A stretch of DNA of 64,000 nt from Minisyncoccota bacterium (GTDB lineage Bacteria; Patescibacteriota; Minisyncoccia; Phycocordibacterales; JAQTLZ01), in contig JAQTSY010000002.1 in assembly GCA_028711065.1 (NCBI GenBank), positions 73,779-137,778 of the forward strand, read 5' to 3'. The notes below the pieces were generated by a model. That model saw only the letters and a program-made list of their open reading frames with translations. It did no database searches and was not told the origin of the DNA. Made by a program: the position numbers and the translations under genes. Positions within the stretch are counted from its first letter, which is position 1, and each line of letters begins with the position of its first letter. Of this stretch, positions 26,330 through 30,246 are shown in pieces.

Positions 26330-26674
26330 TTAAATTGCTTTCGCAACAAGTTTCTTCATTGTTTCAGGATGAAACTCGATAAGGTCTGCCATAATCTTTC
26401 GGTCAACCATAATGTTTTTCTTTTTCAAAGCACCAATGAATTTGCTGTATGAAGAACCGTTTGCTTTGAGGTATGCGCCGATCTTTACGTTCCAGAGCAT
26501 TCGGTAATCATTCTTCTTATCTTTTCGGTGAGCGAATGAGTATTTTCCAGCGTGATAGAGAGCTTCATACGCTGCTCGCTCATTTTTTGAACGTCGAAAA
26601 CGATATCCTTTTACTTGTTTGAGGACATTTCGTCGTGTCTTCAGTGCATTTACTCCTTTCTTTACTCTGGTCAT
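26330..26674 (-). CDS. rplT: 50S ribosomal protein L20
   Basis: 114 aa matching L20. Confidence 0.93.
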   Translation of the reverse strand: MTRVKKGVNALKTRRNVLKQVKGYRFRRSKNERAAYEALYHAGKYSFAHRKDKKNDYRMLWNVKIGAYLKANGSSYSKFIGALKKKNIMVDRKIMADLIEFHPETMKKLVAKAI

Positions 26675-26686
26675 TTCAGTATCGAA

Positions 26687-26875
26687 TTATCCGATAATAA
26701 ATCTAGCCCTGTCTTTGTTGCTAATAGGGAATGGGAAATCAGCTCCTCGGCGCTTTGCCATTTGAGCTCGTCGTGATTCTTTCGCGTTAAAGTGGTTTTG
26801 GCCCGCTTTTCGAGCAGTAATTTTGCCGTTTTTGCTCACTTTTAAGCGCTTCATGTATGACTTGTTTGTCTTCAT
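26687..26875 (-). CDS. rpmI: 50S ribosomal protein L35
   Basis: 62 aa basic protein upstream of rplT. Confidence 0.85.
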   Translation of the reverse strand: MKTNKSYMKRLKVSKNGKITARKAGQNHFNAKESRRAQMAKRRGADFPFPISNKDRARFIIG

Positions 26876-26937
26876 GTATAGGGCAGTATCCTACAGGAAT
26901 AAGGCGAATTTGTCCACTTTTGAGCCATGAAACAGCA

Positions 26938-26967
26938 CTTGACTTTTTGGCTATATATGTGATATAA
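26938..26967 (+). promoter_or_regulatory. sigma70-like promoter TTGACT-N18-TATAAT upstream of the DGR target gene
   Basis: Consensus hexamers. Downstream is a 12-bp stem hairpin (TCGCCATAGCCA...TGGCTATGGCGA) at ~27040-27092. Confidence 0.5.
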
Positions 26968-27094
26968 TAGCGATAGTTTAGAACCTTAAAAAAGCAAAGG
27001 AAATCAAGTCGCCATAGCCACAAGTGCCCGCAAGCCGGACGTTTCTGGCTATGGCGAAAATGATCGCCCACTAGCAAATTCAAAAGGCGCAACA

Positions 27095-27742
27095 TTGTTC
27101 GTAAGAACTGTTGCATACAAGGAGGATGACGCCGTGGATAAAACCATGACCCCGTCCGAGAGCATCAGCACCGGAAAGATCGGCAAGATTCAGGAACTTC
27201 TGGGAGCAGGGCTTCGCAAGTCGGGATTGCCCGACGGTCCGGTTCAGAAAGTGCTTGAGCATCAGGGCGACGCGCTCACCACAGAACTCGTCGCGGTGAT
27301 CCGAAAGTTTGTCGAAGCGATCGGCGAGATGTTCTCGCGCATCGTCAAGGTGAACCGCAAGCGCACCCCGAAAGAGGCGCTCAAGGCCACCGGCCGTAAA
27401 CTCTACGTCAACGACGACGTGGTGGAAGCTATGCCGCGCGGCGAAGGTACCGAAACGGAGGTTCACTTCTTCAAGGTCGGTAAGTATTTGACTGACGAAG
27501 AACTCGACAAGGAATACGAACTCCGCGGGCTCAAACCCGCCGATCCGTACTCCGTCGCCGCGGTGAACGAAGCTGATCCTGCCTTTGCCGATGAGAAGCC
27601 CAACGGCACTCACTGGAAAGACAAAGACGGTAAGTGGTGTTTCGCGGCGTTCAATCGCTGGCGCGGCGAGCGCAGGGTGGGCGTGGACCGCGACGACGAC
27701 GGCTGGAGTGGCCACTGGTGGTTCGCCGGCGTCCGCAAGTAG
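27095..27742 (+). CDS. DGR target (variable) protein; GC-rich (~58%) relative to the genome; VR at the C-terminus; probable start GTG 27134 after AAGGAGGA
   Basis: The C-terminal 97 nt match the downstream template repeat except at template adenines. Confidence 0.8.
   Translation: MFVRTVAYKEDDAVDKTMTPSESISTGKIGKIQELLGAGLRKSGLPDGPVQKVLEHQGDALTTELVAVIRKFVEAIGEMFSRIVKVNRKRTPKEALKATGRKLYVNDDVVEAMPRGEGTETEVHFFKVGKYLTDEELDKEYELRGLKPADPYSVAAVNEADPAFADEKPNGTHWKDKDGKWCFAAFNRWRGERRVGVDRDDDGWSGHWWFAGVRK
27640..27736 (+). repeat. DGR variable repeat (VR)
   Basis: 97/97 alignable with TR 28093-28189. There are 14 mismatches, every one at a TR adenine (VR has G or C). A GC-rich IMH-like 3' end (GGTTCGCCGGCGTCCGC) is followed by hairpin CAAGTAgcacttcgTACTTG. 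Confidence 0.85.
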
Positions 27743-28092
27743 CACTTCGTACTTGCGACACTTCGCACTTTTGGATCCTTTGTCCTTTGTTCGCAAAACG
27801 CTTTTGGAAGATACGCGTCAAACTTCCAGCCCGGTACATCTGTATCGGGTTTTTTCGTGCTAAAATAAAGACGGCTGTAGGTGAATATGCAGAAGATTAC
27901 GATTTTCTGCTGCCGAAACCAGTATCCGCAAGTTGAGAGCGTCTGCGATCACGGTTTCAGACGGAGGACTTGCGAAGACACTTCACAAAAAATGAAGCTA
28001 CTTGGTATAAAGTGTTAGGGCATTTCGATGCCGGATACGATACAACCTTGAGAGTATTCAAGAGGTGGTGACAAAGAAGGCATTTTATACAA

Positions 28093-28189
28093 TTTCGCGA
28101 CGTTCAATCGCTGGAACGACGAGCGCAAGGTGAACGTGAACCGCAACGACAACAGCTGGAATGACAACTGGTGGTTCGCCGGCGTCCGC
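28093..28189 (+). repeat. DGR template repeat (TR), rich in AAC codons
   Basis: See VR. A hairpin CTCTCCTACttttGTAGGAGAG lies downstream. Confidence 0.85.
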
Positions 28190-28607
28190 TACTCGCTTCG
28201 TTTCTCTCCTACTTTTGTAGGAGAGTTTCGTTTATCCCGAGCATTGTCGAGGGATTTGGAGAGTTGTCCGCTCCAACCACCGAGCATTTTGCCGATCTCT
28301 TCGATTTTTAGGGAAAGAGCGATGTATTTTTTGTTGTCGATCGACTTTGTTTCCCAGAGAACCATCACTAATATTTTCAGAGTGTCTATTTTTCGCACAG
28401 CCAGACGCACGTAGGGAATTTTTTCTTCACGAGAAAGAAACGTCGCAATACTGATCGCTTCTATGCTTTCGACAAACAGTGAATCAACCCTTTGTCCGAG
28501 GGAATGCCGATGGGCTTTCGGCAGGATTTGATAGTAGCTATACCAAAGGATATAAACATCTTTTATTTTCTGGAGAAGTGGAAGAAGCTTTGCGGGGGGG
28601 GGGGCAT
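28189..28607 (-). CDS. avd: DGR accessory variability determinant (Avd; four-helix-bundle / 23S rRNA IVS-protein family). The reading frame is interrupted by a G11 (C11 on the coding strand) homopolymer at 28594-28604
   Basis: The C-terminal 73 aa (listed ORF 28189..28410) and upstream in-frame residues (...LGQRVDSLFVESIEAISIA...KIEEIGKMLGGW) match the four-helix-bundle IVS/Avd family. The ATG at 28605-28607 is in frame only if the tract were 12 nt. The 419-nt span is not a multiple of 3. Confidence 0.6.
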
Positions 28608-28638
28608 AGAGGCTTGAGAATTCATGGTGTAATATGTT

Positions 28639-29652
28639 TTGATGCTGAAAAAACTTGATAATGCATACGACAATATCATATCTTTGGAAAATTTACTTTT
28701 AGCATGGCAGGAGTTTTTGAGCGGGAAGAAGAAGCGAGAAGATGTGCAAGAATTCGAGCGAAATTTGATGCAAAATCTTATTTCACTTCATTCCGATCTT
28801 TCCGCGAAAACATATCGTCACGGAGCATACCATTATTTCGTCGTCTCTGATCCGAAACGGCGCGATATTCATAAAGCGACTGTCCGCGACAGGATAGTGC
28901 ATCGAGCAGTCTATCGAATTTTGTATCCGTATTTTGATCGGAAATTTATTCCTGATTCGTATTCTTGCCGGAATTTCAAAGGAACGCATCGAGCACTCGA
29001 TCGCTTTCGGGATTTCGGGAGAAAAGTTTCCCGAAATCACACTTGCACCTGTTGGGTCTTGAAGTGCGATATCCGCAAGTTTTTCGCTTCGATTGATCAC
29101 AAAACGCTTTTTACAATTTTGGGAAAGCACATTTCGGATGCAGATACGCTTTGGCTTTTGCGAGGAATTGTCGGCAGTTTTCATTCAAAAAGAGAAGGTG
29201 TCGGATTGCCACTTGGAAATTTAACTTCGCAACTTCTGGTGAACATTTACATGAACGAATTTGATCAATTCGTAAAGCATCGACTGAAAGTAAAATATTA
29301 CATTCGCTACGCTGATGATTTTGTTTTTCTCCACGAGGACAAAGCTGTGCTTGAAGAGCTTTTGCCGAAGATTGGAGATTTTTTGGAAGAGAAATTAGAA
29401 CTTTCTTTGCATCCCGACAAAGTGTTTATTAAAACATTTTCCTCTGGTGTGGATTTTCTCGGATGGATGCACTTTCCGAATCATCGAGTATTGAGAGCAG
29501 CGACGAAGCGAAGAATGATGAGGACTATAGAAGCGAAAAAAGGAAAAACAGAGACCCTTCAGTCTTATCTTGGGCTTTTATCTCACGGGAATACAAAAAA
29601 ACTGCAGAGAAAAATACGAACCATCAACTTGGAAGCTTGGCTTCCAAGTTGA
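28639..29652 (+). CDS. DGR reverse transcriptase
   Basis: RT motifs with the DGR-diagnostic LPLGNLTSQLLVNIYM in motif 4 (group II introns have QGxxxSP). YADDFVF in motif 5. No maturase or endonuclease domain. Confidence 0.85.
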   Translation: MMLKKLDNAYDNIISLENLLLAWQEFLSGKKKREDVQEFERNLMQNLISLHSDLSAKTYRHGAYHYFVVSDPKRRDIHKATVRDRIVHRAVYRILYPYFDRKFIPDSYSCRNFKGTHRALDRFRDFGRKVSRNHTCTCWVLKCDIRKFFASIDHKTLFTILGKHISDADTLWLLRGIVGSFHSKREGVGLPLGNLTSQLLVNIYMNEFDQFVKHRLKVKYYIRYADDFVFLHEDKAVLEELLPKIGDFLEEKLELSLHPDKVFIKTFSSGVDFLGWMHFPNHRVLRAATKRRMMRTIEAKKGKTETLQSYLGLLSHGNTKKLQRKIRTINLEAWLPS

Positions 29653-29655
29653 TGG

Positions 29656-30246
29656 TCAAACCTTTGGTGCGGGGTTTTCCGGTTTTGGCACGATCGGAGC
29701 TGCTGCAGGAGCTTTTTTAGCTAAAAGAGTCTGCACCCCGCCTGTTCCTTTTTCGACAATGATGGTGATACCTTTGGGACTCTTTGTTGGGCCGTCGGCG
29801 ATTCTAAATTCTTCGGTGATGAGCATGAGGATGCGGTTCAAGCGTTCTTTGAGGAAATTAAAATCCATGTATTTTGCCCGGCCGGAAAGGAAGAGGTCGA
29901 TTTTTATTCTATGACCTTCTTTGAGCCACTTACTCGCATTTTTCGCTTTCAAATTGAGGTCGTGGTCTCCAGTGCCTATTTTCACTTGGAGTGTTTTCAT
30001 CTCGATGATATGCATTTTCGACTTCGCGACTTTCGCTTTTTTATTTTCGTCGTATTGATATTTTCCGAAGTCAGTAATTTTGGCTACAGGAGGTACTGCG
30101 GTAGGGGAGATTTCTATAAGATCGAGTCCGAGCGCCGCTGCTTTATCCATCGCGTCTTTAAAAGAGATAACGCCAAAATTCTCGCCTTCGGGACCGATGA
30201 CGCGTAGTTCTGCCGATCGTATTTGATGATTAATTCTAGCTTTCAA
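29656..30246 (-). CDS. infC: translation initiation factor IF-3 (C-terminal A/P-rich tail)
   Basis: IF-3 N- and C-domains. It lies upstream of rpmI-rplT on the same strand, separated from them by the DGR. Confidence 0.9.
   Translation of the reverse strand: MKARINHQIRSAELRVIGPEGENFGVISFKDAMDKAAALGLDLIEISPTAVPPVAKITDFGKYQYDENKKAKVAKSKMHIIEMKTLQVKIGTGDHDLNLKAKNASKWLKEGHRIKIDLFLSGRAKYMDFNFLKERLNRILMLITEEFRIADGPTKSPKGITIIVEKGTGGVQTLLAKKAPAAAPIVPKPENPAPKV

Follow-up and report, generated by a model that had tools for sequence, protein, structure and literature searches.

A C tract between avd and its start codons as a probable contingency locus in a Patescibacteria-type DGR

The accessory gene avd of a Patescibacteria-type DGR is cut off from both of its candidate start codons by an uninterrupted run of eleven C, and a simple-sequence repeat stands at the same site in most of the related loci compared. 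We consider it likely that this tract is a contingency locus, through which the translation of Avd, and hence DGR mutagenesis, would be phase-varied. The proposal is supported by strong comparative evidence and by no direct evidence; it rests on the anatomy of the site and on the pattern across the family, both of which are read from DNA sequence.

Position of the Tract and the avd Start Codons

The gene avd lies on the minus strand of the 64 kb stretch of DNA analysed here (the window). The tract (28594..28604) is G11 on the plus strand and C11 on the avd coding strand, and is situated between the avd start codons and the region encoding helix 1 of Avd. Reading along the minus strand, ATG (28607-28605) is followed by C11 and then by GCAAAGCTT. 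No other G/C homopolymer of at least 8 nt is found in the window, and the number of G11/C11 runs expected there from base composition is 0.006.

The proximal start codon (28605..28607, minus strand) abuts the tract, and with C9 or C12 would give a protein beginning MPPP(P)AKLLPLLQK. The preliminary description had taken it for the only ATG able to give a full-length Avd. The tract-adjacent ATG is real, but a second candidate lies upstream (28623..28625, minus strand), which would give MNSQASMPPPP... and is located 17 nt from the opposite-strand start codon of the reverse transcriptase (RT) gene. The two ATGs are 18 nt apart and share a common frame, and at C11 this frame meets a stop after 14 or 20 codons. 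The claim that the ATG is out of frame at 11 nt and that a tract of 9 or 12 nt would restore an Avd of about 139 aa was thus confirmed on the sequence, since rebuilding the tract in silico gave an Avd of 138 or 144 aa at C9 and of 139 or 145 aa at C12, while C8, C10, C11 and C13 gave short peptides only.

Past the tract, the avd frame contains no ATG, GTG or TTG for at least 40 codons, so that an Avd start downstream of the tract, the observation named beforehand as one that would refute a switch, is missing from the window over that distance. The first possible start in this frame is the GTG at 28410, which yields the 73-aa C-terminal fragment described earlier. The site therefore has the anatomy expected of a contingency locus, in that its repeat is uninterrupted, separates the ATGs from helix 1 and has a unit length not divisible by three.

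The Avd Body and Its Predicted Fold

The Avd body (28189..28602, minus strand) was identified from a Pfam match, an AlphaFold2 model and a fold match. Its frame opens inside the tract (PPPAKLLPLLQK...KRSE) and ends at a stop codon at 28191-28189; translated from within the tract it reads PPPAKLLPLLQKIKDVYILWY...KRSE, and the body is open across 137 codons. The repaired minus-strand protein matched the Pfam family bAvd (PF22296, E = 1.1e-11, 45.6 bits against a curated cut-off of 40), and the match begins directly past the tract. An AlphaFold2 model (mean pLDDT 87), built from the reading frame as it stands in the window, shows four helices (residues 8-24, 29-54, 58-84 and 90-125) forming a bundle, and the prolines encoded by the tract form an unstructured N-terminal tail ahead of helix 1, suggesting that variable length at this place should be tolerated. 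The 73-aa fragment from the GTG starts at residue 65 of the model and would be without the first two helices and some of the third.

The top match of a PDB fold search was the Bordetella phage Avd 4dwl (TM 0.87, rmsd 1.5 Å), followed by Avd chains of DGR ribonucleoprotein structures, while PDB sequence and profile searches with Avd returned nothing useful. 4dwl is the Avd of the BPP-1 DGR, and 8ub7 and 8ubb are RT-Avd-RNA complexes of the same element. The locus thus has the Avd accessory protein adjoining the RT that is expected of a DGR, and in the window a frame shift parts this protein from its start codon.

The DGR Cassette

Apart from the break in avd, the locus forms an intact DGR of the Patescibacteria type, laid out as TR-(avd)-RT. 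The RT gene (28642..29652, plus strand) is divergent from avd, and its ATG is 37 nt from the tract. The encoded protein carries the motifs LGNLTSQ and YADD and matched RVT_1 of Pfam (E = 6e-24), as expected of a DGR-type RT, and its N-terminus can be aligned with those of its homologues. The template repeat (TR; 28093..28189, plus strand) is 97 nt long, contains 24 adenines and ends at the opposite-strand avd stop codon. The variable repeat (VR; 27640..27736, plus strand) occupies the 3' end of the target gene, an ORF of 215 aa without any Pfam match (27095..27742, plus strand), so that it encodes the C-terminus of the target protein, and it ends 6 nt ahead of the stop codon. VR departs from TR at 14 of the 24 TR adenines and at no other position, which is the pattern of a DGR repeat pair. 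Because VR differs from TR at adenines only, the DGR is inferred to have been active in the past. The GC-rich 3' end of TR/VR has only two copies in the window.

As for the kind of substitution, 12 of the 14 changes in VR are A-to-G, and 10 of the 24 TR adenines are unaltered. Mutagenesis by DGRs is usually described as A-to-N, and by comparison 12 of 14 A-to-G is a strong bias.

The cassette resembles the DGR of Bordetella phage BPP-1 (mtd-avd-TR-brt) in the motifs of its RT, in the adenine-specific differences between TR and VR, and in a four-helix Avd that superposes on 4dwl. It differs in that avd lies on the opposite strand between TR and RT, with the 5' ends of avd and RT facing each other within 17-37 nt, and in the slippery repeat in the N-terminal tail of avd; to our knowledge, the avd of BPP-1 has no such repeat. 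CPR-type DGRs are reportedly also the subject of a paper by Paul et al. in 2017. The architecture B3, TR-(avd)-RT, was reported by Wu et al. (2018) for 90% of their CPR DGR set (PMC5758913), and the window shares the gene order and orientation of these B3 CPR-type DGRs. In the Bordetella system, Avd is required together with RT for cDNA synthesis (PMC8632793), a requirement that is known for BPP-1 only (PMC8632793, PMC5758913).

A Repeat at the Same Site across the Family

Two sets of relatives, obtained in independent scans, were compared. The genome set consists of 80 loci from species-representative genomes, found by a search with an Avd alignment (the best 80 of 513 confirmed matches), and the metagenome set consists of 80 loci found by a search with the window's RT (the best 80 of at least 582 confirmed matches). 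The 5' end of avd was readable in 149 of the 160 loci, on which the family counts rest. Most locus records belong to Patescibacteria/CPR, with a few labelled Methanosarcinales, Gammaproteobacteria, Bdellovibrionales or Bacteroidota, and the Avd homologues with a named source come from Patescibacteria/CPR metagenome-assembled genomes. Among the matches listed, the nearest relatives were 68% identical in RT and about 78% in Avd, and none was close. Exact-protein look-ups with the window's RT, L20 and target protein gave no match, and a search of the metagenome collection with a DNA pattern of exact flanks and a variable gap found no copy of the window's locus. Without a close relative, variation in tract length remains unobserved in the window's own lineage.

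The preliminary description had proposed looking for a homopolymer at the avd start of related DGRs. A simple-sequence repeat was found at this position, ending 2-9 nt short of the initial Leu of the conserved LLPLLQK, where helix 1 starts, in 136 of the 149 readable loci, and avd and RT are divergent in all of the repeat-bearing loci examined (136/136). Poly-C is present in 115 loci and is 6-12 nt long, with 6 nt in 1 locus, 7 nt in 9, 8 nt in 20, 9 nt in 23, 10 nt in 40, 11 nt in 18 and 12 nt in 4. Other loci carry (CT)n (11 loci, 19-31 nt), (CA)n (3 loci) or (GCCA)n (2 loci), and (CAAC)n (L040), (CAAT)n (L068) and (GA)n were each found once. Seven repeat units are therefore in use, and the units of the true repeats are 1, 2 or 4 nt long, never a multiple of three. 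Two calls of the script are marginal: L046 has a three-unit CCG run and was treated as repeat-less in the frame test given below, and L041 has a TTAA run 41 nt off the site.

The concentration of such runs at this place is high, as 105 of the 118 C/G runs of at least 8 nt in 766 kb of locus DNA are at the avd repeat site. It was considered whether a conserved PPP motif might bring along an incidental C run. At a conserved Pro of avd, CCC is the rarest Pro codon (14/115), indicating that the C homopolymer is not a by-product of PPP codon usage, and other clades use unrelated repeats; this explanation was rejected. Judging from these comparisons, what is conserved at the site is repetitiveness and not a particular sequence.

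In two loci, the assembly itself is interrupted at the repeat. A gap (run of N) near 3000 in L036 falls exactly within the poly-C tract, and a gap near 3000 in L075 lies beside a long (CAGC)n repeat. Both gaps fit with conflicting or failed reads at the repeat.

Frame State and the Start of Avd Translation

Of the 136 repeat-bearing loci, 41 (30%) have an upstream ATG, open as far as the repeat, that shares the avd frame; in 90 it is out of frame, and 5 have no ATG. The out-of-frame ATGs are in one alternative frame only in 40 loci, in the other only in 35, and in both in 15. The frame relative to the upstream ATG is thus close to random where a repeat is present. Of the nine loci where the repeat is absent or broken by mixed codons, eight keep the same conserved upstream ATG in frame (L037, L045, L046, L056, L066, L070, L076 and L128, with L032 as the exception). 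The in-frame fractions, 8/9 against 39/134 for repeat-bearing loci, differ by Fisher's test (p = 6e-4), although several of the repeat-less loci are related and not fully independent. An in-frame fraction near one third would also be expected if the frame were irrelevant; the retention of the upstream ATG in frame by the repeat-less loci suggests that the real Avd start is upstream of the repeat. In addition, the repeat is directly followed by a K or R codon (AAA, AAG, CGN or AGA), which indicates a coding constraint at the protein level upstream of any internal start candidate. In-frame Avd homologues in the database begin exactly as the window's Avd would be expected to, for example with MPPPAIKLLPLLQK (P0020) and MTTTPPPPAKLLPLLQK (P0014).

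These observations bear on a different reading of the site, in which Avd starts downstream, at TTG or a non-canonical codon, and the repeat belongs to the 5' leader of RT or TR-RT, to its ribosome-binding region or to a promoter spacer. Repeats in promoter spacers are known as switches in Bordetella fim and Neisseria opc, where the repeat lies between the -35 and -10 hexamers. In the related loci, the repeat is on the upstream side of RT at 4-40 nt (mode 13), or up to 60 nt at the widest, from its ATG, and most loci show it as a purine- or G-rich stretch, poly-G or (AG)n, when read on the RT strand, features that would suit a leader element, as would the near-random frame relative to the upstream avd ATG and the TTG present at core residue 2 in 51 loci. 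However, the frequency of this TTG matches ordinary Leu codon usage and is no higher in out-of-frame loci. An ATG, GTG or TTG occurs between the repeat and core residue 5 no more often in out-of-frame loci (60 of 95) than in in-frame loci (27 of 41), and no downstream start before core residue 5 exists in the remaining 35 of the 95 or in the window, where none occurs over 40 codons. Starting at a TTG or ATG among core residues 2-5, a near-full-length Avd could be made in about 63% of the out-of-frame loci, which is not the case in the window. The in-frame repeat-less loci and the constraint on the K/R codon also stand against a leader, and the spacing of the repeat is tight with respect to the avd core (a gap of 2-9 nt) but loose with respect to the RT start. 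A scan with the sigma-70 consensus detected no promoter-like site across 28594-28604, although CPR promoters may differ, and the unrelated sequences of the repeat units argue against a sequence-specific RNA signal. We therefore regard a downstream start with a leader function of the repeat as quite improbable, while a secondary effect of the repeat on RT remains possible.

Length Variation, Decay and Sequencing Error

The avd body is open over at least 100 aa in all of the out-of-frame loci (95/95), and its identity to the query is the same as in in-frame loci. Since every out-of-frame avd body is intact and the repeat is the sole lesion, the pattern indicates a switch and not decay. On the same ground, the possibility that the out-of-frame loci are decaying pseudogenes was rejected.

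Tract length differs between loci with near-identical flanks, as expected of a contingency locus; this was observed in the relatives. L035 (C12) and L106/L122 (C11) show no mismatch in 2562 bp of flank, L004 (C8) and L009 (C11) show 1 mismatch in 2004 bp, and L111 (C10) and L114 (C8) have essentially identical flanks. The (GCCA)n repeat is 37 nt long and in frame in L086 and 45 nt long and out of frame in L118, with identical proximal flanks. By contrast, contigs encoding an identical internal-start Avd have the same out-of-frame C10 throughout (L161-L164, from four independent assemblies, and L165-L167). An out-of-frame C10 common to independent assemblies of two populations suggests that the out-of-frame state can be stable and dominant.

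The preliminary description had left room for a homopolymer sequencing error, in which case the true tract would be G12 (or G9), avd would be intact and no switching would occur. Homopolymers of 11 nt are prone to error, no close relative is available as a check, the assemblies of L036 and L075 break exactly at the repeat, and some of the loci come from long-read assemblies, where homopolymer errors are possible. Nevertheless, about two thirds of the 136 related loci, from many projects and assemblers, are also out of frame. Among them are loci with di- and tetranucleotide repeats, where in our judgement homopolymer errors are not expected, while the repeat-less loci are in frame and four independent assemblies agree on an out-of-frame C10. 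A one-off sequencing error or homopolymer miscalls cannot explain this family-wide pattern, and an error in the window would alter its state only and not the switch across the family. The alternative thus falls as an explanation of the family and still stands for a single contig: an assembly error from G12 to G11 in the window cannot be excluded, although we think it unlikely that error accounts for the observation. The phase-variable avd switch proposed in the same description gained support from the repeats in 136 of 149 loci, the near-random frames, the intact bodies and the length differences, a support that is comparative and not direct.

Another reading accepts the tract length and lets expression bypass it. 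By programmed recoding, through slippage of RNA polymerase or ribosomal frameshifting on the C run, a constitutive low level of Avd would be made, and the length of the DNA tract would be of minor importance. RNA polymerase tends to slip on long homopolymers and ribosomes to shift on C-rich Pro codons, and from the window sequence it can be reasoned that a -1 shift within C11 would give MPPPPAKLL.... Programmed sites keep one fixed frame, though, whereas here the three are about equally common (in frame in 41 loci, in one or the other alternative frame only in 40 and 35, and in both in 15). Di- and tetranucleotide repeats at the same site, and differences in length at the DNA level between identical flanks, are likewise not what recoding would lead one to expect. 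In the absence of a fixed frame relationship among the homologues, a programmed frameshift of the dnaX or prfB type was rejected, with some leakiness at C11 remaining plausible, and we hold recoding as the main explanation to be very unlikely.

A Proposed Switch of Targeted Hypermutation

Under the contingency-locus model, translation of Avd would start at the ATG at 28607 or at 28625 and read through the repeat into helix 1. Slipped-strand mispairing at replication would add or remove repeat units, so that lineages would pass by heritable and probably reversible steps from tracts in frame (C9, C12) to tracts out of frame (C10, C11) or back. Only one length class in three would join the start codon to the four-helix bundle. 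With the consensus C11 of the window, a peptide of 14-20 aa and no full Avd would be made, leaving the RT without its partner; mutagenic retrohoming would be off and the current VR frozen until C12 or C9 arises, and diversification would be taken up again in a minority of cells, those with C12 or C9. A useful rate of slippage, its reversibility, the requirement of the CPR RT for Avd and the loss of DGR activity off-frame are all inferred. RNA polymerase or ribosome slippage on C11 could leak some in-frame product. As a further caveat, the repeat is also upstream of the divergent RT start and could act on RT too or instead.

Contingency loci are known from host-adapted bacteria, such as the CAAT repeat of Haemophilus influenzae lic1A, the poly-G of Neisseria pilC and the poly-G tracts of Campylobacter jejuni. 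The avd site is like them in having an uninterrupted homopolymer or 2- or 4-nt repeat just past the start codon, the length of which sets the frame, in the number of units varying between related strains, and in a gene body that is intact when off; even the unit types CAAT and CAAC recur in DGR loci (L068 and L040, respectively). Unlike the known cases, the gene encodes the accessory protein of a retroelement and not a surface antigen, an LPS enzyme or a restriction-modification gene, the retroelement so controlled mutates another gene, and the hosts are Patescibacteria (CPR). Phasevarions, in which phase-variable DNA methyltransferases alter methylation and gene expression, offer a second likeness, as a simple-sequence switch in one gene toggles a system with downstream, genome-encoded consequences. 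The effect here would differ in that targeted hypermutation of a ligand-binding protein would be turned on and off.

The concept of contingency loci is cited in PMC3521204, and simple-sequence phase variation and DGRs have been treated as alternative routes to diversity (e.g. PMC3521204). In the literature searched, nothing connects avd or a DGR with homopolymers, simple-sequence repeats, slipped-strand mispairing or phase variation of the retroelement; nor did a search confined to retroelement literature, which leaves out CPR phase variation in general, find DGR-linked phase variation reported from Patescibacteria. The text of PMC5758913 contains neither "homopolymer" nor "pseudogene", and its lone "frameshift" concerns indels in TR/VR and not avd, so the avd repeat appears to be unremarked in that survey. 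A classic contingency switch placed on a retroelement for targeted hypermutation, apparently across much of the CPR DGR family, has no counterpart in the literature searched. One review puts the share of DGRs among the reverse transcriptases of CPR bacteria at about 80%.

We lean, with less assurance than for the tract of the window itself, towards the view that most Patescibacteria DGRs carry a selected, hypermutable on/off repeat at the 5' end of avd, which in a (CT)n subgroup possibly also overlaps the RT ORF. If so, targeted hypermutation would itself be under stochastic, heritable phase variation, and a simple rule would apply at the population level, in which most cells keep a working variant of the target protein and few re-randomise VR. 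The regulation of cellular DGRs would thereby find a general explanation, as would the frequent annotation of avd in these genomes as truncated or with an internal TTG start. It may also be an early case of simple-sequence phase variation in Patescibacteria, the general literature on which was not covered. The model predicts that the frame state of the tract in reads tracks the heterogeneity of VR in the same sample.

The (CT)n Subgroup and the Surroundings of the Cassette

The (CT)n subgroup comprises L116, L137, L138, L142, L143, L145, L148, L155, L157, L158 and L160. Between the repeat and the conserved NIIS.ENLL of RT, an RT-frame ATG is lacking in ten of these 11 loci, among which L158 has a TTG, and occurs at +59 in L148. 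Three loci (L137, L148 and L160) have an ATG in the RT frame 66-67 nt past the repeat, inside the opposite-strand avd, and in these avd and RT are both in frame. The repeat of this subgroup may sit in both divergent ORFs, and as far as the reading frames allow a judgement, would then toggle RT as well as avd.

In the window, the start codons of avd and RT face each other over the short interval 28605-28641, so that the promoter of each must lie within the other gene. In many relatives, an N-terminal extension of avd overlaps the first RT codons in antisense. As avd lies on the opposite strand between TR and RT, a transcript from TR to RT would be antisense to the entire avd.

The cassette (27095-29652) splits the usual infC-rpmI-rplT cluster (window 26330-30246). 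It is flanked by infC (29656-30246, minus strand), whose stop codon is 4 nt from that of RT, and by rpmI (26687-26875, minus strand) and rplT (26330-26674, minus strand). IF3, L35 or L20 was found within 2.5-3 kb in none of the 160 related loci.

Just past TR, a terminator-like hairpin with a 9-bp stem and a T-rich tail (28204..28225, plus strand) is located inside the 3' end of the opposite-strand avd. It may be the hairpin, as RNA or DNA, and not the protein that accounts for the conserved NSPxKxGEK at the C-terminus of these Avd proteins. Finally, a TR-like stretch of 21-27 nt was identified inside the target gene at 27337-27363, 333 nt upstream of VR, with 83% identity over 24 nt, and could be due to chance or be the remnant of an older repeat.
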